Below are positions 1 through 16,416 of a stretch of DNA of 64,000 bases, in pieces (the stretch's first letter is position 1; each line of letters starts with the position of its first letter). Under the pieces are notes generated by a model, which had not been told where the DNA came from, made no database searches, and saw only the letters and a list, made by a program, of their open reading frames with translations. This DNA is from a virus, in IMG/VR virus record IMGVR_UViG_3300013006_000027, positions 1-64,000 of that record; one strand, 5' to 3'. The position numbers were made by a program, and so were the translations under genes.

Positions 1-60
1 ACAACTACAGCAGGTCCAGGTACAACTACGACAACTACAGCAGGTCCAGGTACAACTACG
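1..60 (+). repeat. 30-bp tandem repeat encoding the TTTAGPGTTT linker
   Basis: acaactacagcaggtccaggtacaactacg twice exactly; another 30-bp duplication at 385-444. Confidence 0.9.
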
Positions 61-2319
61 ACAACTACGGCAGCACCAGGCCCAACCATAATACAGTATA
101 CGTTAACAAATATAGGAACAGAAGGACTAACTATTCAGTCAATGACCTTCAACGATCCTCCAAATATAGGTCATATTGCTAATTTAATAAATTTAGGTGG
201 TTCTAGTGCTGAGACCGGTAATGCATCATTAGTCTATAACTTTCCCGCAAGTACAACACAAACTTTTACTCTAGATTATACTAATTCTGGAGCTGCCCCG
301 GGAACATATCTTGGTAATGTAATTATTGGCGGTAGTAATAGTACCAGTCAAACTATAAATAGTACCATTACGGTCGTTGGAGGAGGTACTACTTCAACTA
401 CAACAGCAGGACCAGGTACTACTTCAACTACAACAGCAGGACCATCACCATCTGGAGTCGGGGCTATATTTGGATTTGGTGCTGATGCCTCATCTGCATA
501 TCTTTCAACGACCAATCTAGTGTCTGCCACTGGTGTTGTTGCTGCTGATGTTACTAGTGTTGGCACTGGTAGATTTGGTCTAGCAGCAGCTAGTTATGGC
601 GGTGATAAAGCTATATTTGGATTTGGAACCGCTGTTCTCTTGTTTGTTCCGTTGCAAGATTGTAATATAACCAATCTAGTAAATAATCTTGGTGTTGTTG
701 CTACAGATAATTCTGGTGTTGGTACTGCAAGGGGGGGTCTAGCAGCAGCAGGATATGGTGGCGATAAAGCTATATTTGGATTTGGTGAAATCAATAGTAG
801 TGGTTATACCCCTGTAAATATGACCAATCTAGTAACTAATACTGGTGTTGTTGCTACCGACCAATCCGCATTAACTGGTACAGCAAGATATCAACTAGCA
901 GCAGCAGGATATGGTGGCGATAAAGCTATATTTGGATTTGGTCAGGATTTCTATCCAGGGACTGTCTTTTCAATAACCAATCTAGTAGATAATCTTGGTG
1001 TTGTTGTTGCTGACCAAACCGCATTAACTGGTACCGCAAGGCAAGGTCTAGCCGCAGCAGGGTATGGTGGCGATAAAGCTATATTTGGATTTGGCTCTAA
1101 TAGTAGTGGTTATACCACTGTAAATATAACCAATCTAGTAAATAATCTTGGTGTTGTTGCTACAGATACCACTGGTGTTGGTACCGCAAGGCAAGGTCTA
1201 GCCGCAGCAGGATATGGTGGCGATAAAGCTATATTTGGATTTGGTTATACCGGTTCTTCCTACACTAACATAACTAATTTAGTATCTAATACTGGAGTTG
1301 TTGTTGCTGATCAAACCGCATTAACTGGTACTGCAAGATCGGCTTTAGCAGGAGCTAGTCTTGGTAGTGCAGTCACACCTACAACTACAACTACTACAAC
1401 AGCAGCACCTTCTGGGCCTACACAGGCTATATTTGGATTTGGAAGTGATCCACTTAATGACGTTTCAACAACCAACCTAGTAGATAGTAATGGTGTTGTT
1501 GCTGCTAACCAAACTGCATTAACTGGTACTCCGAGGAGTGGTTTAGCAGCAGCAGGATATGGCGGTGATAAGGCTATATTTGGATTTGGTTATGCATACC
1601 CTGCAGGTAATTATTCAGTAACCAATCTAGTAGATAATCTTGGTGTTGTAGTTGCAGATACACCCGGTGTTGGTACTCCAAGAAGAAGTGTGGCGGCAGC
1701 AGGATATGGTACTGATAAAGCTATATTTGGATTTGGATTTACTGGCACTTCTGTTTCAATAACCAATCTAGTAAATAATCTTGGTGTTGTTTCTGCTGAT
1801 CAAGCCTTATTAACTGGTACTCCAAGAGGTAATTTAGCAGCAGCAGGATTTGGTGTTGATCAAGCTATATTTGGATTTGGAGTTACGGGCACCAGTACTA
1901 CTTTATCAACAACCAACCTAGTATCTAATACTGGTGTTGTTTCTGCTGATCAAACTGCATTAACTGGTACTCCGAGGGCTAGTTTAGCAGCAGCAGGATA
2001 TGGCGGTGATAAAGCTATATTTGGATTTGGTTTTGATAATGGTACTTTTACACCGCTTTCAGTAACCAACCTAGTAGATAATCTTGGTGTTGTTGCTACA
2101 GATACCTCTGGTGTTGGTACTCCAAGGTCTGGTTTAGCAGCAGCAGGATATGGTACTGATAAAGCTATATTTGGATTTGGTACTACTCTGAGTAGTAGTG
2201 GTGGTACTAAGGTATCAATAACCAATCTAGTAAATAATCTTGGTGTTGTTGCTGTTGACCAAACTGCATTGACTGGTACTGCAAGAAGTGCTCTAGCAGC
2301 AGCTAGTTTTGGTACCTAA
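1..2319 (+). CDS. 5'-partial virion surface protein: Thr-rich linker, Ig-like (ASH/choice-of-anchor D-like) domain, two 6-bladed Kelch-like beta-propellers
   Basis: Frame is open from base 1 (TTTAGPGTTTT...YTLTNIGTEGLTIQSM), so it extends beyond the ORF-track start at 142; 12 repeats of AIFGFG-x(7-13)-ITNLV.N.GVV.TD..GVGTARxxLAAAGYGGDK in two groups of six. Confidence 0.85.
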   Translation, partial: TTTAGPGTTTTTTAGPGTTTTTTAAPGPTIIQYTLTNIGTEGLTIQSMTFNDPPNIGHIANLINLGGSSAETGNASLVYNFPASTTQTFTLDYTNSGAAPGTYLGNVIIGGSNSTSQTINSTITVVGGGTTSTTTAGPGTTSTTTAGPSPSGVGAIFGFGADASSAYLSTTNLVSATGVVAADVTSVGTGRFGLAAASYGGDKAIFGFGTAVLLFVPLQDCNITNLVNNLGVVATDNSGVGTARGGLAAAGYGGDKAIFGFGEINSSGYTPVNMTNLVTNTGVVATDQSALTGTARYQLAAAGYGGDKAIFGFGQDFYPGTVFSITNLVDNLGVVVADQTALTGTARQGLAAAGYGGDKAIFGFGSNSSGYTTVNITNLVNNLGVVATDTTGVGTARQGLAAAGYGGDKAIFGFGYTGSSYTNITNLVSNTGVVVADQTALTGTARSALAGASLGSAVTPTTTTTTTAAPSGPTQAIFGFGSDPLNDVSTTNLVDSNGVVAANQTALTGTPRSGLAAAGYGGDKAIFGFGYAYPAGNYSVTNLVDNLGVVVADTPGVGTPRRSVAAAGYGTDKAIFGFGFTGTSVSITNLVNNLGVVSADQALLTGTPRGNLAAAGFGVDQAIFGFGVTGTSTTLSTTNLVSNTGVVSADQTALTGTPRASLAAAGYGGDKAIFGFGFDNGTFTPLSVTNLVDNLGVVATDTSGVGTPRSGLAAAGYGTDKAIFGFGTTLSSSGGTKVSITNLVNNLGVVAVDQTALTGTARSALAAASFGT

Positions 2320-2326
2320 CTATTAG

Positions 2327-2370
2327 TATTCATACGCATATTGGATCATTGTAACAAGTTTATTATGAGA
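2327..2370. repeat. 44-bp dispersed repeat, copy 1 (copy 2 at 5757-5800)
   Basis: tattcatacgcatattggatcattgtaacaagtttattatgaga; 41/44 identical to copy 2; each lies 7 nt after the stop of a propeller gene. Confidence 0.9.
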
Positions 2371-2410
2371 GAATAGCAATATTATAAATGAATAATTATA
2401 TATTTACTAT

Positions 2411-2418
2411 GATAAATA
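2411..2418 (+). promoter_or_regulatory. T4-type late promoter core
   Basis: GATAAATA 16 nt before ATG; (A/C)TAAATA recurs before many structural genes (6625, 12616, 19967, 20722, 23163, 23892, 25459, 44321, 47554, 50355, 50844, 51795, 53860, 57110; minus strand 62600). Confidence 0.7.
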
Positions 2419-2434
2419 TATAAAAGATGAATAT

Positions 2435-5400
2435 ATGGCAGCAAGACAATTTACATTAAGAAATGCTGGAACAAGTAGTTTAGTTATACAGTCAGTGACT
2501 TTTAATGGTCTTTCTGGCATTGGTCATACCGCTAATTTGGTAAATTTAGGTGGTTCAAGCACCGAGACTGGTAATGCAACGTTGTCGTATACTCTTGCTT
2601 CAAATACTGTGCAAACTTTTACAGTAGATTATTATGACGCAGGCGCCGGCCTTGGAACATATACCGGTAATATAGTAATTGGTTGTAGCAATAATGTCAG
2701 TTCAACTACTATATCTAGTACAGTTCGGATTAATCCAACAACTACTACTACAACATCTACTACTACAACATCTACTACTACAACAACCACACGAGCACCT
2801 ACTACAACAACTACACGAGGACCTACTACAACAACTACAACAGCAGGACCAGGTACAACTACAACCACACGAGCACCTACAACTACAACTACAACTACAG
2901 CAGCTCCATTATCTGGAGCTAGGGCTATATTTGGATTTGGTAGCAATGGCTCTCTTAATTTTCTTGCTATAACTAATAAAGTATCTGATACTGGTGTTGT
3001 ACAGACCGATATTACTTATCCGTTTAGTACTCCAAGATATGGCGCGGCAGCAGCAGGATTTGGAGGAGATCAAGCTATATTTGGATTTGGTCAAATTAAA
3101 ATTGCTAACGTCTTCATCCCGACTTCTATAACCAATCTAGTAGATAATACTGGTGTTGTTGCTACTGATACTGAGGGTGTTGGTACTGCAAGATATAGTC
3201 TAGCAGCAACAGGATATGGCGGTGATAAGGCTATATTTGGATTTGGTGAAACTAGTGGTCCTACCGTTGTCTCCATGACCAACCTAGTAGATAATACAGG
3301 TGTTGTTGCCACTGATACTACAGGTGTTGGTACTCCAAGGCGAAGTTTGGCAGCAGCTAGTTATGGTTATGATAAGGCTATATTTGGATTTGGCGTTCGA
3401 ACTGGTGGGGCGACTTCTATAACCAATCTAGTATCTAATCTCGGTGTTGTTGCTACTGACCAAACCACATTAACTGGTACAGCAAGGCAAGGTCTAGCAG
3501 CCGCAGGATATGGGTATGATAAAGCTATATTTGGATTTGGTTGGGATATTAATCTTATTTATGTTTCAATAACCAATAAAGTAACTAATACCGGAGTAAT
3601 TGCCGCAGATATTACTAGTGTTGGTACTGCAAGGCAAGGTCTAGCAGGATCAGGCTATGGCAGTGATACAGCTATATTTGGATTTGGTAGTTCCAATGGT
3701 CCTGTTTATTATTCAATAACCAATCTAGTATCTAATCTTGGTGTTGTTGCTACTGATACTGCTGGTGTTGGTACTGCAAGGTCGTTTCTTGCAGCAGCAA
3801 GATTTGGTGCTACTGTAGTTCCACCTAGTACTACCACAACAACGGCAGGACCACCAGCTGGACTTAATGCTATATTTGGATTTGGACGGGTCGATGGAGA
3901 TGGTTATTTTTCAATGACCAATAAAGTATCTGATACTGGCGTTGTTGCTACAGATACTACTGGTGTTGGTACTGCAAGAAATAGGTTAGCAGCAGCAGGA
4001 TTTGGCGGTAATAAAGCTATATTTGGATTTGGAGACCGCGGTGGTGAATTTGGTACTTCCATAACTAATACTGTATCTGATCAAGGGGTTGTTGCTACAG
4101 ATACCGCTGGTGTTGGTACAGGAAGGATGGATCTAGCAGCAGCAGGATATGGCAGTGATAAAGCTATATTTGGATTTGGACATGTCAATTTCGCCGAGAC
4201 TGAGTTATCAATAACCAATCTAGTAGATAATACAGGTGTTGTTGCCACTGATACTACAGGTGTTGGTACTGCAAGATATGGTTTAGCAGCCGCAAGTTAT
4301 GGCGGTGATAAAGCTATATTTGGATTTGGACAGGCCAATTTAATCAATGTTTCAATGACTAATCTAGTATCTAATCTCGGTGTTGTTGCTACTGATACTA
4401 CTGGTGTTGGTACTGCAAGACATTATCTAGCCGCAGCAGGATATGGTAGTGGTCAGGCTATATTTGGATATGGTCTAATCAGTGGTTATGTTTCAGTAAC
4501 TAATTTAGTATCTGATCAAGGGGTTGTTGCTACAGATACCGCTGGTGTCGGCAGTGCAAGGGGTTATCTAGCAGCAGCAGGATTTGGTGGCGATCAGGCT
4601 ATTTTTGGATTTGGAACTGTTTCTGGCGGCGGTTCTGGTACTGCAATAACTAATCTAGTAAATAATCTCGGTGTTGTTGCTACTGATACAGCCGGTGTTG
4701 GTACTGGAAGATGGGGACTAGCAGCAGCAAGTTATGGCAGTGGATCCGCACCAATCAATACCACGACTACAACCACATCAGGATCTACAACTACTAGTAC
4801 AACCACATCAGGATCTACAACTACTAGTACAACCACATCAGGATCTACAACTACGACAACGGCAGCACCATCAACTGGATTTAGAGCTATATTTGGATTT
4901 GGGTATGTTTCATTTAGTACTAATATAACTAATCTAGTATCTAATACTGGTGTTGTTTCTACAGATACCGCTGGTGTTGGTACTGAAAGGGAAAGTCTAG
5001 CAGCAGCCGGGTATGGTGGTGATCGAGCTATATTTGGATTTGGAATAGATACGTCTGGGTACCTGTCGATGACTAATCTAGTATCTAATACTGGTGTTGT
5101 TGCTACTGATACTACTGGTGTTGGTACTACAAGATATTATCTAGCAGCAGCAGGATATGGCGGTGATAAAGCTATATTTGGATTTGGTACTACTGGTAGT
5201 AGAACTAATATAACCAACCTAGTATCTAATACTGGTGTTGTTGCGACAGATACCGCTGGTGTTGGTACTGCATTAAGTACTCTAGCAGCAGCCGGGTATG
5301 GTTATGATAAGGCTATATTTGGATTTGGAGTGGATACCTTATTTGTTACAGTTTCAATAACTAGTCTATTTTCTAATACTGGCATTTTTGTTAGTGAATC

Positions 5401-5749
5401 TACAAGTGTTGGTACTGCAAGGGAAAGTCTAGCAGCAGCAGGATTTGGAGGAGATCAAGCTATATTTGGATTTGGGTACTTGGGCGGTACCGGGGATTTG
5501 TCAATAACCAATCTAGTGTCTAATCTTGGTGTTGTTGCTGCTGACCAAACTGCATTAAATGGTTCTCCAAGATATAATCTAGCGGCAGCAGGGTATGGCG
5601 GTGATAAGGCTATATTTGGATATGGAAGAGCCTTTGGCGCCATTACCAACGTAACCAATCTAGTATCTAATCTTGGTGTTGTTGCTACAGATACTCTTGG
5701 TGTTGGTACTGCACGAGAACGTCTAGCAGCAGCAGGATATGGCACTTGA
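2435..5749 (+). CDS. virion surface protein: Ig-like domain, Thr-rich stalk, three 6-bladed Kelch-like propellers
   Basis: N-terminal domain paralogous to that of the upstream ORF (GH.ANL.NLGGSS.ETGNA); 18 repeats in three groups of six separated by poly-Thr linkers. Confidence 0.85.
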   Translation: MAARQFTLRNAGTSSLVIQSVTFNGLSGIGHTANLVNLGGSSTETGNATLSYTLASNTVQTFTVDYYDAGAGLGTYTGNIVIGCSNNVSSTTISSTVRINPTTTTTTSTTTTSTTTTTTRAPTTTTTRGPTTTTTTAGPGTTTTTRAPTTTTTTTAAPLSGARAIFGFGSNGSLNFLAITNKVSDTGVVQTDITYPFSTPRYGAAAAGFGGDQAIFGFGQIKIANVFIPTSITNLVDNTGVVATDTEGVGTARYSLAATGYGGDKAIFGFGETSGPTVVSMTNLVDNTGVVATDTTGVGTPRRSLAAASYGYDKAIFGFGVRTGGATSITNLVSNLGVVATDQTTLTGTARQGLAAAGYGYDKAIFGFGWDINLIYVSITNKVTNTGVIAADITSVGTARQGLAGSGYGSDTAIFGFGSSNGPVYYSITNLVSNLGVVATDTAGVGTARSFLAAARFGATVVPPSTTTTTAGPPAGLNAIFGFGRVDGDGYFSMTNKVSDTGVVATDTTGVGTARNRLAAAGFGGNKAIFGFGDRGGEFGTSITNTVSDQGVVATDTAGVGTGRMDLAAAGYGSDKAIFGFGHVNFAETELSITNLVDNTGVVATDTTGVGTARYGLAAASYGGDKAIFGFGQANLINVSMTNLVSNLGVVATDTTGVGTARHYLAAAGYGSGQAIFGYGLISGYVSVTNLVSDQGVVATDTAGVGSARGYLAAAGFGGDQAIFGFGTVSGGGSGTAITNLVNNLGVVATDTAGVGTGRWGLAAASYGSGSAPINTTTTTTSGSTTTSTTTSGSTTTSTTTSGSTTTTTAAPSTGFRAIFGFGYVSFSTNITNLVSNTGVVSTDTAGVGTERESLAAAGYGGDRAIFGFGIDTSGYLSMTNLVSNTGVVATDTTGVGTTRYYLAAAGYGGDKAIFGFGTTGSRTNITNLVSNTGVVATDTAGVGTALSTLAAAGYGYDKAIFGFGVDTLFVTVSITSLFSNTGIFVSESTSVGTARESLAAAGFGGDQAIFGFGYLGGTGDLSITNLVSNLGVVAADQTALNGSPRYNLAAAGYGGDKAIFGYGRAFGAITNVTNLVSNLGVVATDTLGVGTARERLAAAGYGT
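4771..4854 (+). repeat. 30-bp tandem repeat (TTSGSTTTST linker), about 2.8 copies
   Basis: aaccacatcaggatctacaactactagtac repeated. Confidence 0.9.
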
Positions 5750-5756
5750 TTATCTT

Positions 5757-5800
5757 TATTCATACGCATATTGGATCATTCTAACAAGTTTGATATGAGA
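5757..5800. repeat. 44-bp dispersed repeat, copy 2
   Basis: tattcatacgcatattggatcattctaacaagtttgatatgaga. Confidence 0.9.
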
Positions 5801-5920
5801 AAAATATGTTTCATGACTTTTAGATAGGCATATATATTCAATACAGCAAGGATCAATTCATATCATTTCTCTAAAAAGATATGCTATTGTCAATGCTAAC
5901 TTTTTATATAAGGAATATAT

Positions 5921-6562
5921 ATGCCATCAAAATTTAACTCTGAATTTAATTACCGTTACCTGGTCAACGGCGAAACACCTTGGGAAAAAATCAAAATCCT
6001 TAAAGGATTTTTGGAAGGTAGAAAACGTGCTGCTTGTTTGGAAGAAGTTGCCGCAAAAAAACGTTTGGCAAAAGAACTAGAATTGGAAAACTGCAAAAAT
6101 AACAATGCATTACCCCATGTTATCTTAAATTTAGAAGCAGAACTCTTAGAATCTAAATCTTTTGATGAAGGACAAAATGAAGCATGGGAATTAAATCGAC
6201 AAGAAATTGCATTTTTAGAAAGTTTTCTAGCAGAAATATATGAGGTCGCTGAACAAACTAGAATTCCCGGTTATACAGATGAACAAATGTTTGAAGCAAA
6301 TGCTGCATACGAGTTTACTGTTATGCTTGGAAAAGAAATTCAAGCAGAAATTATTGCAAATGGTCGACCATCACCTGCAAAATTAAGAAATGCTATGTCA
6401 AATCCATATACATTTGAAACTTTGAAGAGAGTAGGACTAGTTCCACAAGAAGCAGTCTTATTAGATACTACTGTTCAAAATCCATTAGAGTTGGCATTTA
6501 ATGAAGTTGTTACTGAAACTAAAAATTTACAAATTCAACATAGTAACGTAAAAACAGAGTAA
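5921..6562 (+). CDS. hypothetical alpha-helical protein within the propeller gene cluster
   Basis: 213 aa, AAGGA RBS, E/K-rich helical composition. Confidence 0.8.
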   Translation: MPSKFNSEFNYRYLVNGETPWEKIKILKGFLEGRKRAACLEEVAAKKRLAKELELENCKNNNALPHVILNLEAELLESKSFDEGQNEAWELNRQEIAFLESFLAEIYEVAEQTRIPGYTDEQMFEANAAYEFTVMLGKEIQAEIIANGRPSPAKLRNAMSNPYTFETLKRVGLVPQEAVLLDTTVQNPLELAFNEVVTETKNLQIQHSNVKTE

Positions 6563-6660
6563 TCTTTGTACCTAAAAATCATTTGGTATAAAGATGTACT
6601 GTGCAGGTAAGATAATATAAATTTGATAAATATTCATAGAATATATTTCAGGAATATCCA

Positions 6661-9600
6661 ATGACCTATGCACAGTACAATCTTATAGAAGCATCTGATT
6701 TCAATGCCCTAATTGGTAACAATCCTGGTAATACAGCAAATACACTTAACACTACATGGGCCGTTGGTAACGGTAACGCTGGTTACGGACAGCAGCAGGT
6801 AGCAAATGTTGCTATAGGATATACTGTTGCTAATATTGATTGGGCTACTTTAATTAATAATACCGCAAACTCAGCGGCTCATCAAGGTTCTACAATTACT
6901 AGTGTTACTCCACCTTCTGGCGGAAATACTATAGCATATATTGCTGCGGTTACAAATAATTTAACTACAATTTATAATAATCGTCTTAATGCAGTAGCGC
7001 AAGGGCTGATCCCTGCATCTAACACTGTTACTAGTGGTAACACGTGGACTAGTAATATAGTATTCACTCAGACAGCATCTTTTGCGAATGGTGATGCGGC
7101 TCGATACTTTTTTAATGCAGGTGGACAGTTAGTTATTACCTGTGCTCATCCAACTGGTAGTACAATTAACAATATATTCCATGGTTTAGCTGCAAACATA
7201 GGCAATGTTACATTAAGTTCACCTACAACAGGTGTTATAAATGTTGCCGGTAATTCGTTTAGTGGTATTAGTAAATTAGGAGGAAGTGGACAAACACCTA
7301 GTATACTTACTAACAATGGGTATTATGCGTTGACAACTAGTAACGCAAATGTATTTACACAAATTGATGGTGTGGATTCTACTTTTAGTTCTAGCTATAT
7401 TAATATAAAAGTTAAATCTAATGGAACTCAAGGTAGTTACGGAGATGCAGGAAATGTTATAACATTCTATACTACATGGCAGGAACTACCAGTTGGTACG
7501 ACAGTATCAGCAGGTACGGCAACTACGCTAACTGCGATTTATCCATCAAGTAATAATATTGCCAACACTTGGGGTACGGTAACTGTTCAAGGATCATCAC
7601 CGATCACACCAACAACTACTACTACAACTACAACAGGCCCGGGCACTACAACTACAACTACAGCAGCTCCATCACCAGCTCCAGCTGGATCTGCTATATT
7701 TGGATTTGGATTTGGTACTAAACCGAGTGGTCAAGGTGCACTCAACATGACCAATCTAGTAAATTATTTTGGTGTTGTTGCTACAGATACCACTGGTGTT
7801 GGTACTGAAAGATCTGGTCTAGCAGCAGCAGGATATGGTGTTGGTCAGGCTATATTTGGATTTGGTTACACCGGTGGTGGTACTTATTTTTCGATCACCA
7901 ATCTAGTATCTAGTGCTGGTGTTGTTGCTACAGATACGACTGGTGTTGGTACTGCAAGGCGAGAACTAGCAGCAGCAGGATATGGTAGTGGTCAGGCTAT
8001 ATTTGGATTTGGTGAAGACGCCGGCTCGGTTGCCGTTTCAATAACCAACCTAGTAGATAATACAGGTGTTGTTGCTACTGATACTACTGGTGTTGGTACT
8101 GCAAGGAATGGACTAGCAGCAGCCGAATATGGTGTTGGTCAGGCTATATTTGGATTTGGAAGTTCTTCTGGTGGGTATTATACGAATATAACCAATCTAG
8201 TAAATAATCTTGGTGTTGTTGCTACTGACCAAACTGCATTAACTGGTACTATAAGATCTAGACTAGCAGCCGCAGGATATGGCGGTAATAAAGCTATATT
8301 TGGATTTGGAAATGATGGGGTATCTCATGTTTCAATTACCAATCTAGTATCTAATCTTGGTGTTGTTGCTGCTAACCAAACCGCATTAACTGGCACAGCA
8401 AGATCTAATCTAGCAGCAGCAGGATATGGTGGTGATAAAGCAATATTTGGATTTGGAGCTTTTGGTAGCGGTTTAACCCGAACTTCTATAACCAATCTAG
8501 TATCTAATCTTGGTGTTGTTGCTGCTGATGTTACTGGGGTTGGTACTGCAAGGCAGGACCTTGCAGCAGCAGGATATGGTAGTGGACCCCCACCATTGAC
8601 TACAACTACAACTACAGCAGCTCCAACACCTACACCTGGATCTGCTATATTTGGATTTGGATTGAATAATGTCGGCGATGAAACATCAATAACCAATCTA
8701 GTAAATAATAACGGTGTCGTTAGTAATGATGTTACTAGTGTTGGTACTGCAAGGCGAAGTCCAGCAGCGGCAGGATATGGCACTGATAAGGCTATATTTG
8801 GATTTGGATTTGCAAATCTACTAAGTTACATCGCAATAACTAATCTAGTATCTAATCTTGGTGTGGTTGCCACAGATACTGCTGGTGTTGGTACTCCAAG
8901 ATCTGCTTTAGCAGCAGCAGGATATGGTGGTGATAAAGCTATATTTGGATTTGGTAATGATAATAGTGGTGCACCTTTTTCAATGACCAATCTAGTAAAT
9001 AATCTTGGTGTGGTTGCTGCTGATACCACTGGTGTTGGTACGGCAAGATATGGTCTAGCAGCAGCAGGATTTGGTGTTGGTCAAGCTATATTTGGATTTG
9101 GAAATACTGGCATTGCTGTTTCAATAACCAATCTAGTAGATAATAACGGTGTTATTGTTTCTGAAACTGCTGGTGTTGGTACTGCAAGATATGGTCTAGC
9201 AGCAGCAGGGTATGATAGTGATAAAGCTATATTTGGATTTGGTAGATCATCTAGTTTAACATCAATAACCAATAAAGTATCTAATCTTGGTGTCGTGCAG
9301 GCTGATGTTACCAATCTTAGCTCTACAGCAAGAGATGCTCTAGCAGCAGCAGGATACGGTAGTGGTCAAGCTATATTTGGATTTGGTAGAGTAGGCCCCT
9401 TATCGGGAACTGCTTCGGTTCGAATAATCAATCTAGTAAATAACCTAGGTACTATTGTTAGTGAATCTGCTGGTGTTGGTACTCCAAGGTCTGGACTAGC
9501 AGCAGCAGGGTATGGTGGTGTACCTCCTTCGCCACCTACAACTACAACTACAACTACAATAGGCCCAGGCACTACAACTACTACTACAACCGCAAGTCCA

Positions 9601-11604
9601 GGACCAACTAGAGATGGAAAAGCTATATTTGGATTTGGATTTGCTGGCGGCTCTGATGTTTCAATAACCAATAAAGTAAATAATATTGGTACTGTTACTA
9701 CAGATACTACAGGTGTTGGTACTGCAAGAGTAATACTAGCAGCCGCAAGTTATGGCGGTGATAAAGCTATATTTGGATTTGGACGGGCCGGTGGCATCGA
9801 TGTTTCAATAACCAACCTAGTATCTAATCTTGGTGTTGTTGCCACAGATACAACTGGTGTTGGTACTGCAAGATATGGACTAGCAGCAGCAGGGTATGGT
9901 GGTGATAAAGCTATATTTGGATTTGGGGTGGGATCGCTTGCGTCGTCCACAATAATTAATCTAGTATCTAATACTGGTGTAGTTGCTACAGATACGGCTG
10001 GTGTTGGTACGGCAAGATCTCAACTAGCAGCAGCCGGCTATGGTTATGATAAAGCTATATTTGGATTTGGAGCAAGTGGGGTTGGTTTATTCTCAATAAC
10101 CAATCTAGTAAATAATCTTGGTGTTGTTGCTACAGATACTGCTGGTGTTGGTACTCCGAGGTATGGTCTAGCAGCAGCAGGATATGGTACAGACAAGGCA
10201 ATATTTGGATTTGGTGTTACTAGTAATCCAACTAGTATAACCAATCTAGTATCTAATCTTGGTGTTGTTATTGTTGATCAAGCCGCATTAACTGGTACTG
10301 CAAGATATGGACTAGCAGCAGCAGGATATGGCGGTGATAAAGCTATATTTGGGTTTGGTTTTACCAACATTTCTCTTGGCAACCCTACTAACGTAACCAA
10401 TCTAATAACTAATACTGGTGTGGTTGGCAATGATGTCACTGGTGTTGGTACTGCAAGGTCAGGTCTAGCAGCAGCCGGATATGATAATGTACAACCACTG
10501 AATTATACATTTCCGATACCTGGTACTTACTCTGTAGCACCTATACCCGGCTACCCCTATCTTGCACTAGAATTGGTTGGTGCGGGGGGCGGTGGAGGCG
10601 GCACTGATGGATACGGCGCTAGTTATGCAGGTGGTGGCGGTGGTTCTGGTGGGTATTCTTTTGATATTTTAGATACTACCGGAACAAGTGGTAACTTCAC
10701 TGTAACTGTAGGCGCTGGCGGAACTGCTGCTAGTGCTAGCCTCGACGGTACTGTTTATCCAGGTGTACCTGGCATAACTAGAACTGGTACAAAAAATGCT
10801 GGAACCGGAGGCATATCTTCACTACTATACGGTTTAACAAATTATTATACTGCTCTAGGAGGAGTTGGAGGTACCGGTAATACAGGTAGTAACGATGATG
10901 GTGTGGGCGGAGCTGGCGGTATAGGTAGAACTATTTCTGGTAATCCTGGAGTCACCCCTTCTACTCCGATAGATATTTATCCAGCAGCAGCAGGAGGCGC
11001 TAGCGTATATGGTGGATTTGGTACAGGTGGAGCTAGTCAAAATAGTAACTTTACTTCTAATTCAGATGCAAACTTGCCACAAGCCGGTGGTAATGGTTAT
11101 GTAAGAATGCAATTCTCTAGCACTCTACCTAGTACAACTACTACAACTACTACTGCTGCACCAAGTGGTACTATCAATACTGCATTGTTTACTTACTTAA
11201 CAAATAATAGTTTTTATGGATCAATTTCTGGTGGAACCGATGCTAGCACATATATTTTATTTTATTCTAACGGTAACTTTGCAATTCTTGATCAATCAGG
11301 AACTAATTTAACCAATGGAGCCCCAACTAATCAATATTGGTTCAGTGGGGGATTTGTAACTCCGGGATTAGTCCATTGGTTCAGATTTACACAAACTGCT
11401 GTGAATGGTTATACCGCTACAGCTACAACTGGTTGGATTCAACCAGGAGTCGCCGGGATCGCAGCAGCATATGTAGCAAATAATTATAATGCAACTACAG
11501 ACGCAACTTATACCATAGAAGTTGCGTCAGATTCATCAGGTACTAACATCGTAGCAACCGCTACCGGGGTGTTAATATCCGCAACACAGTACCCTCCCCC
11601 GTAA
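6661..11604 (+). CDS. large virion protein: ~310-aa structural N-terminal domain, three Kelch-like propellers, Gly-rich domain, C-terminal beta domain
   Basis: 1647 aa; late promoter at 6625; 18 blades in three groups of six; GAGGGGG...GGGGGSGGY Gly-rich domain typical of tail fibres. Confidence 0.85.
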   Translation: MTYAQYNLIEASDFNALIGNNPGNTANTLNTTWAVGNGNAGYGQQQVANVAIGYTVANIDWATLINNTANSAAHQGSTITSVTPPSGGNTIAYIAAVTNNLTTIYNNRLNAVAQGLIPASNTVTSGNTWTSNIVFTQTASFANGDAARYFFNAGGQLVITCAHPTGSTINNIFHGLAANIGNVTLSSPTTGVINVAGNSFSGISKLGGSGQTPSILTNNGYYALTTSNANVFTQIDGVDSTFSSSYINIKVKSNGTQGSYGDAGNVITFYTTWQELPVGTTVSAGTATTLTAIYPSSNNIANTWGTVTVQGSSPITPTTTTTTTTGPGTTTTTTAAPSPAPAGSAIFGFGFGTKPSGQGALNMTNLVNYFGVVATDTTGVGTERSGLAAAGYGVGQAIFGFGYTGGGTYFSITNLVSSAGVVATDTTGVGTARRELAAAGYGSGQAIFGFGEDAGSVAVSITNLVDNTGVVATDTTGVGTARNGLAAAEYGVGQAIFGFGSSSGGYYTNITNLVNNLGVVATDQTALTGTIRSRLAAAGYGGNKAIFGFGNDGVSHVSITNLVSNLGVVAANQTALTGTARSNLAAAGYGGDKAIFGFGAFGSGLTRTSITNLVSNLGVVAADVTGVGTARQDLAAAGYGSGPPPLTTTTTTAAPTPTPGSAIFGFGLNNVGDETSITNLVNNNGVVSNDVTSVGTARRSPAAAGYGTDKAIFGFGFANLLSYIAITNLVSNLGVVATDTAGVGTPRSALAAAGYGGDKAIFGFGNDNSGAPFSMTNLVNNLGVVAADTTGVGTARYGLAAAGFGVGQAIFGFGNTGIAVSITNLVDNNGVIVSETAGVGTARYGLAAAGYDSDKAIFGFGRSSSLTSITNKVSNLGVVQADVTNLSSTARDALAAAGYGSGQAIFGFGRVGPLSGTASVRIINLVNNLGTIVSESAGVGTPRSGLAAAGYGGVPPSPPTTTTTTTIGPGTTTTTTTASPGPTRDGKAIFGFGFAGGSDVSITNKVNNIGTVTTDTTGVGTARVILAAASYGGDKAIFGFGRAGGIDVSITNLVSNLGVVATDTTGVGTARYGLAAAGYGGDKAIFGFGVGSLASSTIINLVSNTGVVATDTAGVGTARSQLAAAGYGYDKAIFGFGASGVGLFSITNLVNNLGVVATDTAGVGTPRYGLAAAGYGTDKAIFGFGVTSNPTSITNLVSNLGVVIVDQAALTGTARYGLAAAGYGGDKAIFGFGFTNISLGNPTNVTNLITNTGVVGNDVTGVGTARSGLAAAGYDNVQPLNYTFPIPGTYSVAPIPGYPYLALELVGAGGGGGGTDGYGASYAGGGGGSGGYSFDILDTTGTSGNFTVTVGAGGTAASASLDGTVYPGVPGITRTGTKNAGTGGISSLLYGLTNYYTALGGVGGTGNTGSNDDGVGGAGGIGRTISGNPGVTPSTPIDIYPAAAGGASVYGGFGTGGASQNSNFTSNSDANLPQAGGNGYVRMQFSSTLPSTTTTTTTAAPSGTINTALFTYLTNNSFYGSISGGTDASTYILFYSNGNFAILDQSGTNLTNGAPTNQYWFSGGFVTPGLVHWFRFTQTAVNGYTATATTGWIQPGVAGIAAAYVANNYNATTDATYTIEVASDSSGTNIVATATGVLISATQYPPP

Positions 11605-11665: not shown

Positions 11666-12604
11666 ATGAAAAAAAATCTAAGATTTATTTGCGTACAACC
11701 TGCCATTGATTACTATACTTGGCAAGTTGAAGTTATGATTAATAACTTCATGGAAAAAGGAATAAACCCTAACTACATTGACGTAGTATGTGGTATACAA
11801 AACAATCATGTTCCTGAAAGATGGCAAAAATTAGCTAACCATTATAATATGGTTAGATTCTTCTTCTATAACAATACTAGACAATCACCTGGCTATATTA
11901 GCTCTCTAAGACCACATATAATGAAAAAACATTTTCAAGCTAGACCTGAATTACTAGATGAAGCCATATTCTATCACGATAATGATATCATGTTCACTGA
12001 TCGGATAAACTTTGATCAATTTTTAGAAGACGATATATGGTATGGTTCAGATTGTCGTTGGTATATCTCTCACGATTACATCATTAGCAAAGGTGAAGAT
12101 GTATTGGACGCTATGTGCAATATTGTTAAGATTGACAAATCTTTGGTTAAAGAAAATGAGCTAAACAGTATTGGTGCTCAATACTTAATGAAAAATCTTA
12201 CCGCAGAATTTTGGGAAAACGTTGAACGTGATTGTGAAAAGTTATTTGTGGATATTACTGCTATGAATAACATTAAAAAGCAAGCAAATCCTGGATACCA
12301 TGAATTGCAAATTTGGTGCGCTGATATGTGGGCTGTACTTTGGAATGGATGGAAACTAGGTAACAAAACAGAATGTCATAAAGACCTTAGCTTTAGTTGG
12401 GCTACTTCACCGGCAAGAGAATGGAACGATCATAAAATATTTCATAATGCAGGTGTTACTGGAACAGAAAATGGTCAATTTTACAAAGCTAACTATATGC
12501 AAACATTACCCTACAATCAACCCCTAGAAATAAAGCCTGATTATTGTAGTTACCATTATTGGCTATGGGTACAAAAAGTTGCCCAAATGTCTTGCTTAAC
12601 ATAG
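11666..12604 (+). CDS. GT-A fold glycosyltransferase resembling GT95/GT96 protein O-glycosyltransferases
   Basis: YYTWQVEVM near N-terminus, DxD motif (YHDNDIMF), WCADMWA and C-terminal IFHNAG, matching the Y..WQ / DxD / W..EMY / H layout of HPAT/SGT1-type enzymes. Confidence 0.6.
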   Translation: MKKNLRFICVQPAIDYYTWQVEVMINNFMEKGINPNYIDVVCGIQNNHVPERWQKLANHYNMVRFFFYNNTRQSPGYISSLRPHIMKKHFQARPELLDEAIFYHDNDIMFTDRINFDQFLEDDIWYGSDCRWYISHDYIISKGEDVLDAMCNIVKIDKSLVKENELNSIGAQYLMKNLTAEFWENVERDCEKLFVDITAMNNIKKQANPGYHELQIWCADMWAVLWNGWKLGNKTECHKDLSFSWATSPAREWNDHKIFHNAGVTGTENGQFYKANYMQTLPYNQPLEIKPDYCSYHYWLWVQKVAQMSCLT

Positions 12605-12653: not shown

Positions 12654-12971
12654 ATGCAAGCAAAAATTTTATCTATATTACTTTTGTTTCCCTTAAGTGC
12701 GATAGCACAACACCATCATCATGGTATGAGACATTTTGATCATCATCAAGCTCATCGTGGAGGATGGGGTTGGGTAGCACCTGCTGTCATCGGCGGGGCT
12801 GTAGTATATGGGTTAACTCGTCCTTCTCCTGTAATAGTTCAACAACCAGTCTACATTCAACAGCCTCCCGTTGTTGTTCAGCCTCAGGTTGTAATTATTG
12901 ATGGAGTAGAGTATACTAAACAAACTATGATAGTAAATGGTGTATCACAAGAAGTTTTGATACGCCAGTAA
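12654..12971 (+). CDS. small exported His-rich / PVVVQ-repeat protein
   Basis: Signal peptide (AIA-Q), Gly-rich hydrophobic segment, AGGAG RBS, TATAAATA at 12616. Confidence 0.75.
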   Translation: MQAKILSILLLFPLSAIAQHHHHGMRHFDHHQAHRGGWGWVAPAVIGGAVVYGLTRPSPVIVQQPVYIQQPPVVVQPQVVIIDGVEYTKQTMIVNGVSQEVLIRQ

Positions 12972-13009: not shown

Positions 13010-13287
13010 AAAGACGGGCAAGACTCGGGTTCGACTCCCGACCGGTCCACCAAAAGCATACTAGAGTGATGCTGGGGAAGAGTAATAGTCAGCGGTTAAT
13101 AAATCTTCCAAGTATGCTTTTGATGGGCCGGCCATGGTATCGATTGACGGATGAGTAGATGAGTGGACAACACGATAGGCGATGGACGTAATCCAAGCAA
13201 AATCTATAAATGCCAACGATGAGGTATTTGCTATAGCCGCATGAGGCTGAGCCGGAGTAGGAAAGACTCTGTAAAATAACTAACCTG
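13010..13287 (+). ncRNA. ssrA: circularly permuted (two-piece) tmRNA; outer ends approximate
   Basis: Acceptor piece GAC-UCGGG-UUCGACU-CCCGA-CCGGUCC-ACCA ends at 13052; 72-nt intervening segment; coding piece begins GGGCCGG at 13125 (7-bp acceptor stem with G3:U70); tag 13212-13244 ANDEVFAIAA* preceded by ATAAAT. Confidence 0.92.
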
Positions 13288-13288
13288 T

Positions 13289-13315
13289 AATAGGCCCGAA
13301 AGGGCCTATTATTTT
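13289..13315 (+). terminator. intrinsic terminator after tmRNA
   Basis: aataggccc-gaaa-gggcctatt followed by a T-rich run. Confidence 0.85.
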
Positions 13316-13942: not shown

Positions 13943-15043
13943 ATGGCTCAAGTATCTGACAATCTCACCGTTACTAGTGTTCAGGCCCGTAAAGCAATTC
14001 TCAAGGCTTTCAAGGTCAAACGTCCCGTGTTTCTCTGGGGCCCTCCCGGTATCGGTAAGTCTGAGGTTGTTTCTGAAATCACCGAGGAGCTTGGTGGTTT
14101 TATGATTGATTTGCGTATGGCACAAATGGAACCCACTGATATTCGTGGTATTCCTTTCTTCAATAAAGACATTGGCAAGATGGACTGGGCTCCCCCGGTT
14201 GATCTCCCTGACGAGGAACTTGCTAGTCAGTACCCTATCGTCTGTCTGTTCTTGGACGAGATGAATTCGGCTGCCCCTGCTGTACAGGCTGCAGGATATC
14301 AGTTGATTCTCAATCGCCGTGTTGGTAAGTACAAACTTCCTGACAACGTGGTTATTGTTGCGGCAGGCAACCGTGATAGCGATAAGGGTGTTACTTATCG
14401 TATGCCGATGCCCCTTGCTAATCGGTTCTTGCATATTGAAATGCGACCCGATTTTGCTTCGTGGCAGAACTGGGCAGTTAACAAAGGCATCCATAAGGAT
14501 GTGGTTGGTTATCTGTCTTTCGCTAAACAGGATCTCTATGATTTTGATTCAAAGTCCTCTAGCCGCGCATTCGCTACTCCCCGTAGCTGGTGCTTTGTCA
14601 GCGATTTGCTGAATGATGACGAAGACACGGACTCTGATACACTGTTCAACTTGGTCGCAGGTTCTGTAGGTGAAGGTCTTGCTGTTAAGTTTATGGCACA
14701 CCGTAAGGTTGCAGGTCAGATGCCCGAGCCTAGCGATATTCTCGCAGGTAAGGTCAAAGAACTCCGTGTCAAGGAAGTGTCGGCAATGTACTCCCTCACG
14801 ATTAGCCTGTGCTATGAATTGAAGGACGCTCTTGACAACAAACGTGTCAACACCAAACAATTCCACGAAATGGCTGATAATTTCTTCAGCTACATCATGG
14901 CAAACTTTGAAACTGAGTTGGTCGTAATGGGTGCGAAGGTTGCTCTGAAAACGTATCGTCTTCCGATCGAACCCAGTCAGTTGAAACATTTTGATGACTT
15001 CCACAAGAAGTACGGCAAGTACATTGTAGAAGCAGGTAATTAA
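13943..15043 (+). CDS. MoxR-like AAA+ ATPase
   Basis: Walker A GPPGIGKS, Walker B LFLDEMN, AAGN sensor, PLANRF arginine finger, ATPRSW. Confidence 0.9.
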   Translation: MAQVSDNLTVTSVQARKAILKAFKVKRPVFLWGPPGIGKSEVVSEITEELGGFMIDLRMAQMEPTDIRGIPFFNKDIGKMDWAPPVDLPDEELASQYPIVCLFLDEMNSAAPAVQAAGYQLILNRRVGKYKLPDNVVIVAAGNRDSDKGVTYRMPMPLANRFLHIEMRPDFASWQNWAVNKGIHKDVVGYLSFAKQDLYDFDSKSSSRAFATPRSWCFVSDLLNDDEDTDSDTLFNLVAGSVGEGLAVKFMAHRKVAGQMPEPSDILAGKVKELRVKEVSAMYSLTISLCYELKDALDNKRVNTKQFHEMADNFFSYIMANFETELVVMGAKVALKTYRLPIEPSQLKHFDDFHKKYGKYIVEAGN

Positions 15044-15044
15044 T

Positions 15045-15069
15045 AAAAGGGGAGGCAACTCCCTTTTTT
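15045..15069 (+). terminator. intrinsic terminator
   Basis: aaaaggggag-gcaa-ctccc-tttttt. Confidence 0.8.
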
Positions 15070-15072
15070 CAC

Positions 15073-15101
15073 TTGCAATTAAATACGGTATGTGTTATAA
15101 T
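15073..15101 (+). promoter_or_regulatory. sigma70-type promoter
   Basis: TTGCAA-17-TATAAT. Confidence 0.7.
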
Positions 15102-15129
15102 ATAACATATATACGATAAAGGAGTAGGT

Positions 15130-16416
15130 ATGAGTGATGTAGTCGCCCCAACTAAAAAGCGTAAACGTAGTAAAAAATTTGAAAATTTGGTCGGCCCTAC
15201 CGATGCCAAAGTAGACTTCAATGCCCGTGAGCGGTTGGTAACTGCCCGCATTGGTCTGCTTCTCCGTCATTCATTCTTTGGTAACCTTGCAACCCGTATG
15301 CAATTGGTTAACGCCGATGAATGGTGCTCTACAGCCGCTACTGACGGATTGAAATTCTATTACAATTCTCGGTTTATTATGATGCTCAAGCCCAAGGAAG
15401 TTGAATTCTTGGTTGGGCATGAAGTACTTCATGTAGTATACGATCATATTGGTCGTCGAGGCAACCGTGATCCCCAACTTTGGAACATTGCTGATGACTA
15501 CGCGGTTAATGCCGACTTGAAACGGCACAAGGTCGGTGAGTTTATCAAAACGGTTCCTTGCTTGTATGAAGCAAAATATGACGGTAAGAGTGCCGAAGAA
15601 ATCTATGATGACCTTTATGAGAAGGCTGAAAAGATTAACATTGAGGATCATATCGACCAAATGATTGATGATCATATGGAAGGTGAGGGTTCTGAGTCTG
15701 AAGGTGACGGCGAAGAAATTGACGGTAGTGGTAAGGTCAAAGGTCGTCCGAAAATGTCTGGTGAGGAACGTGAACGTGTTCGCCAAGAAGTAAAACAGGC
15801 TATCATCAATGCGGCTTCTTCTGCTGAAGCAGGTTCTATTCCTAAAGGTGTTGAGCGGCTGATCAAACAGCATACTAACCCAATAATGCCTTGGCGTGAA
15901 TTGATTCAGACTAATTTGACAAGTGCTATTCGGACTGACTTTAGCTTTATGCGTCCTAATCGTCGAGGTTGGCATATGGACGCTATCATGCCTGGGATGA
16001 CCCCAGGTGAAGAAATCGATGTTGTAGTTAGCCTTGATATGTCGGGTTCTATTACCGATAAACAAGCTCAGGCATTCTTGGGTGAGATTGCCGGTATGAT
16101 GGATGCGTTTGATGGATATCGGGTGCATGTATTTTGTTTTGATACAGAAACTTACAATCCACAAGACTTTACCAGCGAGAACTTGGATACAATTGATTCA
16201 TATGAACCAGTTGGTGGAGGTGGTACTGATTTTGATTGCATCTTCAGTTATCTTAAAGAAAATGCAATTGTGCCCAAACGTTTGATTGTGTTCACGGATG
16301 GCTACCCTGGTGGTAGCTGGGGAGATCCTGACTATTGTGATACCACATGGATCATTCATGGTGACAAGGATCCTAATCCCCCATTTGGGACGTTTGCACT
16401 ATATGACGGGGCATGA
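15130..16416 (+). CDS. metallopeptidase-like (HExxH) plus VWA domain protein (DUF2201-like), MoxR partner
   Basis: TAATDG, HEVLH, MIDAS DMSGS, GGGGTDF, FTDG. Confidence 0.88.
   Translation: MSDVVAPTKKRKRSKKFENLVGPTDAKVDFNARERLVTARIGLLLRHSFFGNLATRMQLVNADEWCSTAATDGLKFYYNSRFIMMLKPKEVEFLVGHEVLHVVYDHIGRRGNRDPQLWNIADDYAVNADLKRHKVGEFIKTVPCLYEAKYDGKSAEEIYDDLYEKAEKINIEDHIDQMIDDHMEGEGSESEGDGEEIDGSGKVKGRPKMSGEERERVRQEVKQAIINAASSAEAGSIPKGVERLIKQHTNPIMPWRELIQTNLTSAIRTDFSFMRPNRRGWHMDAIMPGMTPGEEIDVVVSLDMSGSITDKQAQAFLGEIAGMMDAFDGYRVHVFCFDTETYNPQDFTSENLDTIDSYEPVGGGGTDFDCIFSYLKENAIVPKRLIVFTDGYPGGSWGDPDYCDTTWIIHGDKDPNPPFGTFALYDGA

Follow-up and report, generated by a model that had tools for sequence, protein, structure and literature searches.

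A predicted peptidyl-threonine O-glycosyltransferase adjoins poly-threonine repeat proteins in a probable giant phage

The gene at positions 11666-12604 of a viral DNA stretch from the IMG/VR database encodes a predicted peptidyl-threonine O-glycosyltransferase. From comparative sequence analysis, and with a probability that we put at roughly 70%, we propose that this enzyme modifies with sugar the threonines in the poly-Thr linkers of the repeat proteins encoded directly upstream. The original prediction, that the phage O-glycosylates its own Thr stalks by means of an enzyme of the GT95/GT96 type, is strongly supported by comparative genomics in its first part. Overall it is supported only partly, as the placement in GT95/GT96 is not established.

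Genome fragment and gene neighborhood

The window, by which we mean the whole stretch of DNA that was analyzed, comprises the first 64 kb of the 78.4-kb record IMGVR_UViG_3300013006_000027. Since the completeness of this record is 23% (CheckV), the phage is probably large, and the source is probably an uncultured giant phage. Genes for a T4-type large terminase, a gp15-like tail-sheath stabilizer, UvsX, SSB and helicases were identified in the window or record, along with a ThyA-family gene 6 kb downstream of the enzyme gene which is a true thymidylate synthase by NCBIfam equivalog cut-offs and adjoins a DHFR gene. A megablast search with 11-20 kb of the window found no match among isolated phages. 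The features surrounding the enzyme gene are the following.

1..2319, + strand: 5'-truncated ORF, 772 aa seen, with poly-Thr linkers, a ~97-aa domain and two six-repeat AIFGFG blocks (translation, domain map)
457-10509: eight six-repeat blocks with the repeat motif AIFGFG...ITNLV...GVVATD...GTAR...LAAAGYGGDK (alignment A2)
2435..5749, + strand: 1104-aa protein with a ~100-aa N-terminal domain, a long poly-Thr stalk and three six-repeat blocks (domain map)
5921..6562, + strand: 213-aa ORF between the repeat proteins, with no poly-Thr and no family match
6661..11604, + strand: 1647-aa protein with a 315-aa N-terminal domain, three six-repeat blocks, a Gly-rich region and a 143-aa C-terminal domain
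11666..12604, + strand: soluble GT-A fold DxD glycosyltransferase (phrog_4417), 312 aa, ATG start
12654..12971, + strand: 105-aa ORF with no family match, between the enzyme gene and the terminator-like site
13287..13312, + strand: intrinsic-terminator-like hairpin with an 11-bp stem, 5 G-C pairs and a T-rich tail

The three upstream ORFs (1-2319, 2435-5749 and 6661-11604) contain 5, 10 and 6 strict poly-Thr runs, respectively, for a total of 21, and no other ORF of the 64-kb window contains one. In the second ORF the blocks are spaced by poly-Thr/Ser linkers and in the third, which lies just 5' of the enzyme gene, poly-Thr linkers join the domains; all three proteins are candidate glycosylation substrates. 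A looser rule yields 13 Thr-rich linkers in the same ORFs, and the earlier description of about ten poly-Thr/Pro/Ser linkers upstream of the gene is borne out. The small ORF at 5921..6562 has no homolog in the other loci compared. The gap between ORF 6661-11604 and the enzyme gene is 61 nt long and holds no terminator-like site. The hairpin at 13287-13312 is the strongest + strand terminator-like site 3' of the enzyme gene, a weak site with a 5-bp stem being found at 12879-12891, and the ORF at 12654..12971 is probably the last gene of the enzyme's transcription unit. Just 3' of this glycosyltransferase unit, at 13943-16416, we also observed a gene for a MoxR-like AAA ATPase (phrog_1297) followed by one for a DUF2201 metallopeptidase/VWA protein.

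Together the three upstream ORFs hold eight blocks of ~300 aa, each composed of six AIFGFG repeats of ~47-50 aa, plus other domains. A model of the six-repeat block, built on the eight paralogous blocks, is all-beta but poor (pLDDT 42), and 'propeller' is used here as a provisional label. The block profile found no match in the PDB, the block found none in isolated phages, and neither the blocks nor ORF 2435-5749 as a whole have a Pfam or PHROG match. More broadly, the upstream repeat proteins of the window match no known virion family (Pfam, PHROG, or carriers from other loci), and its poly-Thr carriers share nothing with those of the other phages and prophages compared. By analogy with other loci, we infer that these repeat proteins may be virion parts. 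ORF 6661-11604 also contains a Gly-rich region at 10530-11127 (~aa 1290-1489) with GGGGGG runs within it (VGAGGGGGGTDGYG), which matches no family and precedes the last poly-Thr linker and the 143-aa C-terminal domain.

The enzyme, its family and its fold

The enzyme matches the full length of phrog_4417, a profile annotated as unknown function, its residues 6-305 aligning with positions 2-291 of the 293 in the profile (E 5e-68), while searches against Pfam and NCBIfam profiles and a sequence search of the PDB gave no match. At E<=0.001, the family comprises at least 2,485 clusters in a set of 5.8 billion proteins, or 865 representatives at 50% identity. Phages of Enterococcus, Staphylococcus, Lactobacillus, Lactococcus, Clostridium and Chryseobacterium encode members of it, as do many aquatic giant phages. 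In many of the enzyme's relatives the domain is joined to a GT2, GT6, GT32-type, GT7C, radical-SAM/SPASM or methyltransferase domain. The motifs first read from ORF 11666-12604, namely YYTWQ (residues 16-20), a DxD motif (DND, residues 105-107, in HDNDIMF) and WCADMW (residues 217-222), are all present and conserved across the family. An alignment of 50 family sequences shows no variation at W19, D107, M221, W222 and H260 and at least 90% conservation at Y16, Q20, D105 and W217, which indicates that these motifs are family signatures and not chance.

An AlphaFold model of the enzyme (pLDDT 97, pTM 0.93) consists of a single Rossmann-like alpha/beta/alpha GT-A domain. Foldseek returned 269 PDB matches at E<=0.001 which, among the matches listed, were GT-A enzymes throughout, and on the strength of this model the enzyme is a GT-A fold glycosyltransferase. 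Judged by Z, the top solved folds are LgtC, the Skp1 alpha-galactosyltransferase and glycogenin (14.2-14.4), followed by UGGT, WbbM, LARGE1, a GT6 enzyme and GlyE at 12.7-13.8 and, lower, by A64R, the capsid glycosyltransferase of PBCV-1, at 11.2. The nearest solved folds are thus retaining enzymes of GT8, GT77, GT24 and GT6, suggesting that the enzyme may also use retaining chemistry. It carries the conserved DxD and downstream His of the retaining GT8-like group (D105, D107 and H260), residues which we take to bind the metal, as is established for the corresponding positions of GT8. The Pfam GT8 model (PF01501) does not match the enzyme, so its likeness to GT8 is one of fold only. Structural comparison settles the fold but not the acceptor: the best matches are effectively tied at Z ~14, with the lipooligosaccharide enzyme LgtC level with the Skp1 galactosyltransferase and glycogenin, and structure does not discriminate between their acceptors.

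We found no hydrophobic segment in the enzyme (maximum KD 0.8), which should therefore act in the cytoplasm. It is the only recognizable glycosyltransferase in the 78-kb record, across which models for GT2, GT1, GT8, epimerase and Tet_JBP gave no match.

The proposed membership in GT95/GT96 fared less well. The Pfam HPAT profile (PF23452) did not match the enzyme at E<=1 or its record at E<=10, nor did it match five phage homologs, five genomes holding relatives or 401 Bacteroidota genomes; its best result among 50 family members was a single sequence at E 0.23. The DUF7164 model likewise found no match in the record. However, when named families are compared by language-model features, HPAT comes nearest: of the 30 closest named ESM-Atlas clusters, 22 have PF23452 and 6 have DUF7164, and in one bacterial neighbor cluster (score 0.96) PF23452 is present in 58% of members. 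We treat kinship of the enzyme with GT95/GT96 as a lead.

Coupling of the enzyme gene to poly-Thr proteins

We searched for poly-Thr tracts around homologs of the enzyme gene in 80 IMG/VR loci whose enzymes are 50-63% identical to that of the window, 77 of them with upstream sequence. A looser criterion, [TSPAG] runs containing five or more T, picks up collagen-like G-X-Y repeats as well, and the main counts use a strict T-run rule. The ORF directly upstream on the same strand contains strict poly-Thr in 56 of the 77 loci, with two or more runs in 55 of these, versus 29 of 501 other same-strand ORFs of at least 200 aa in the same loci (odds ratio 43, Fisher p 1e-38, uncorrected for shared ancestry). 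The enzyme gene thus tracks poly-Thr proteins, as the original prediction would have it. The aquatic carriers are modular, with ~65-aa and ~88-aa domains between long linkers of the TTTTTTAAP type, and since 53 of 57 freshwater carriers (loose rule) have at least one module in common, the aquatic cases are not independent of one another.

Independence comes instead from unrelated lineages in which the same coupling is found. Poly-Thr occurs near the enzyme gene in all five isolated phages inspected (Chryseobacterium MA9V-3, Lactobacillus Semele, Enterococcus VPE25, Clostridium phiCTP1 and Lacticaseibacillus R3.3). The enzyme gene lies within the head-tail module in VPE25, phiCTP1 and R3.3, and in Semele it adjoins the annotated major tail protein. 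Poly-Thr was also found near the enzyme gene in the Bacillota prophages checked (L154-L166), which come from Staphylococcus, Salinicoccus, Salimicrobium, Salinibacillus, Bacillus, Alkalibacillus, Trichococcus and Listeria. In these prophages the tracts form the last 10-20 residues of proteins of ~400 aa, ~110 aa and ~210 aa, and scans against PHROG assign the C-terminal tracts to major head proteins (phrog_10, phrog_840), to major tail proteins (phrog_88, phrog_14018, phrog_1407) and to a virion structural protein (phrog_14478).

A tree built from 166 enzyme domains divides into a phage half and a Bacteroidota chromosomal half. Within the phage half, almost every deep clade has poly-Thr (14 of 14 in the Bacillota clade). 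The poly-Thr state changes ~14 times on the enzyme tree, and the association statistics are not independent of phylogeny. The main exception is a tight clade of 12 loci with no poly-Thr within 6 kb of the enzyme gene, 4 of which carry a poly-Thr ORF 7-9 kb upstream.

The six-repeat block allows the same question to be asked from the side of the substrates. At least 371 relatives of the block were found, all in long metagenomic proteins, where it is often fused to Laminin_G_3/ConA-like lectin, TIG, fn3 or collagen-like regions; two match RCC1 models. In 80 IMG/VR loci seeded with the block of the window, the enzyme family is absent within 10 kb and strict poly-Thr occurs in none of 170 propeller-type proteins, versus 3 of 3 in the window. 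The enzyme is also absent from all 21 block-seeded viral records that were searched whole. Four block relatives (L257, L258, L264 and L268) do carry poly-Thr; their contigs end within or ~2 kb past these genes, too short to show whether the enzyme follows, and we count them against our explanation.

Apparent poly-Thr in block-seeded loci lacking the enzyme, including a complete 297-kb phage, proved to be collagen-like repeats and was removed by the strict rule. In several loci (L172-L175, L190, L194-L196 and L230), block relatives and giant neighboring ORFs alike have very long collagen-like G-T/S-S-G triplet repeats. The presence of collagen-like repeats in place of poly-Thr points to alternative spacer types within one protein family. 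In L177 and L179, a 102-aa ORF at 9722-10027 on the - strand consists almost wholly of T-runs; this is probably an antisense reading of a repetitive plus-strand gene and no real gene.

A chromosomal clade in Bacteroidota

The other half of the enzyme tree is chromosomal in Bacteroidota such as Chitinophaga, Pedobacter and Sphingobacterium. Most enzyme domains here form part of a fusion with a GT2/GT7C domain, and no poly-Thr protein is found nearby. A full-length C39-peptidase ABC exporter lies within 8 kb in 30 of 50 Bacteroidota loci versus 2 of 115 single-domain loci, and Cys-rich peptides with a GG leader were identified in 12 of 50 versus 0 of 115. Many of these peptides have cores that start with a Thr/Ser-rich stretch, and one locus also has GT11, LanC-like and HlyD genes. 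The loci with such clusters are as follows.

L099:5503-14187: Bacteroidota cluster
L160:3305-14347: Bacteroidota cluster
L119, L120, L128, L133, L134, L138, L140, L141, L148, L149 and L165: further Bacteroidota cluster loci

By gene content these clusters look like a glycosylated-bacteriocin pathway and are candidates for a new class of O-glycosylated bacteriocins outside Firmicutes. Such a context supports the idea that the enzyme family acts on peptides.

Proposed function and alternatives

We propose that a cytoplasmic, metal-dependent GT-A enzyme would draw on a nucleotide-sugar of the host and attach the sugar to the hydroxyl groups of threonines within the poly-Thr linkers of all three upstream repeat proteins, before or during virion assembly. 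The outcome would be stiff, hydrophilic, protease-resistant and mucin-like stalks between lectin-like or propeller-like modules.

A related possibility is that a host enzyme or another phage enzyme primes the threonines and the enzyme described here extends or finishes the glycan. The fold neighbors Skp1 AgtA, XXYLT1 and UGGT act on an existing glycan and relatives of the enzyme are often fused to a second glycosyltransferase, both of which would fit such a role. We nevertheless consider it unlikely because the 78-kb record holds no second recognizable glycosyltransferase, none other is annotated in the ~11-kb stretches around the gene in Bacillota siphophages of 38-60 kb, and it is this enzyme that consistently tracks poly-Thr across lineages. 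Somewhat less probable still is an enzyme that modifies a glycan of the host envelope (LPS, teichoic acid or capsule), for instance against superinfection, its adjacency to poly-Thr reflecting a late or structural operon. That phages use glycosyltransferases to alter host surfaces is well established, LgtC is tied for the top fold match and WbbM, an O-antigen enzyme, is close. However, the enzyme lacks a membrane segment and is soluble, nothing nearby encodes a flippase or carrier-lipid partner, and its gene sits inside the head and tail modules of strictly lytic phages. An operon effect is also difficult to reconcile with the rarity of poly-Thr among the other ORFs of these structural regions (29/501) and with its consistent absence from propeller proteins that lack the enzyme (0/170).

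Glycosylation of hypermodified bases in the phage DNA is, in our judgment, quite improbable. Phage DNA glycosylation does involve some GT-A enzymes, GT8/A64R-like ones among them, which are often encoded near thymidylate-synthase-like genes (bioRxiv 10.1101/2023.12.21.572611), and the ThyA-family gene downstream of the enzyme could be read in this light. However, that gene scores as a true thymidylate synthase beside DHFR, no TET/JBP dioxygenase was found in the 78-kb record (23% of the genome), and the R...DDD...EDY/F motifs described for DNA-acting GT-A enzymes (bioRxiv 10.1101/2023.12.21.572611) differ from the DxD...H of this enzyme. A role in DNA modification would also leave the coupling to poly-Thr and to bacteriocin-type peptides unexplained. 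Glycosylation of the poly-Thr linkers is thus the reading that we prefer.

Beyond the window, we hypothesize that phrog_4417 and its relatives form a large, previously unrecognized family of soluble peptidyl-threonine O-glycosyltransferases, related on the prokaryotic and viral side to the plant extensin glycosyltransferases (GT95/GT96), with a phage-coat arm and a bacteriocin-like arm in Bacteroidota; we see the odds of this wider proposal as even. The phage arm would prime mucin-like glycan coats on the capsids, tails and fibers of many unrelated phages and the other arm would make O-glycosylated bacteriocin-like peptides in Bacteroidota. In our search of the literature on phage poly-threonine glycosylation, we found no paper on the enzyme family or on poly-Thr tags as acceptors. 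Phage particles are usually taken to be unglycosylated, with mycobacteriophages given as the known exception in PMC11256854. If the family does glycosylate poly-Thr tags, glycan coats would be common on virions, with a bearing on phage stability, adhesion and the immune recognition of therapeutic phages, as well as on how poly-Thr tracts in metagenomic proteins are read. The compact soluble enzyme and its T-run tag would also make a pair for protein glycoengineering. As homologs are present in several cultured phages, the glycosylation claim is directly testable.

Comparison with known systems

The plant and algal hydroxyproline O-arabinosyltransferases (HPATs) and the peptidyl-serine galactosyltransferase add the first sugar to hydroxy amino acids of extended low-complexity peptides, which is the reaction that we likewise propose here, and the GT95/GT96 enzymes have the DxD motif in common with the enzyme of the window. 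However, the plant GT95/GT96 enzymes sit in the Golgi membrane and use Hyp or Ser as the acceptor, whereas the enzyme of the window is soluble and its presumed acceptor is Thr.

Among the enzymes of solved structure, the fold of glycogenin, Skp1 AgtA, GlyE, UGGT and A64R covers the model from residues 1-5 to residues 305-312, and DxD and the downstream His are shared. Two of these act on substrates of a similar kind, GlyE on a Ser-rich repeat protein (a pneumococcal adhesin) and A64R on a viral capsid protein. The retaining GT-A fold neighbors have only 8-11% sequence identity to the enzyme of the window.

The Bacteroidota clade shares its cluster architecture, a C39 exporter with Cys-rich GG-leader peptides, with the glycocins sublancin, glycocin F and enterocin F4-9. 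To our knowledge, the known glycocin transferases are SunS-like GT2 enzymes. Unlike the glycocins, the Bacteroidota clade has a phrog_4417-type domain fused to GT2/GT7C, and this clade is separate from the phage arm. The glycocins described in PMC8620827 and PMC12457901 come from Firmicutes.

The closest comparison among viruses is with the mycobacteriophages. Work by Freeman and colleagues reportedly showed that mycobacteriophage glycosyltransferases modify the phages' own capsid proteins in the cytoplasm, giving a glycan coat. Virion glycosylation in Che8, Rita and other mycobacteriophages is described in PMC11256854. A direct parallel is seen in Bacillota phages that carry the enzyme gene, whose head and tail-tube proteins end in poly-Thr tags. 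The linkage of a glycosyltransferase to virion proteins with a low-complexity region, as in mycobacteriophages, is found in these relatives; the carriers of the window are putative virion proteins. In Che8-type phages, according to PMC11256854, the enzyme genes are located toward the opposite end of the genome, away from the substrate gene. Unlike these, the enzyme gene of the window adjoins its putative substrates, in which the poly-Thr tracts are long, internal, mucin-like linkers of giant modular proteins.
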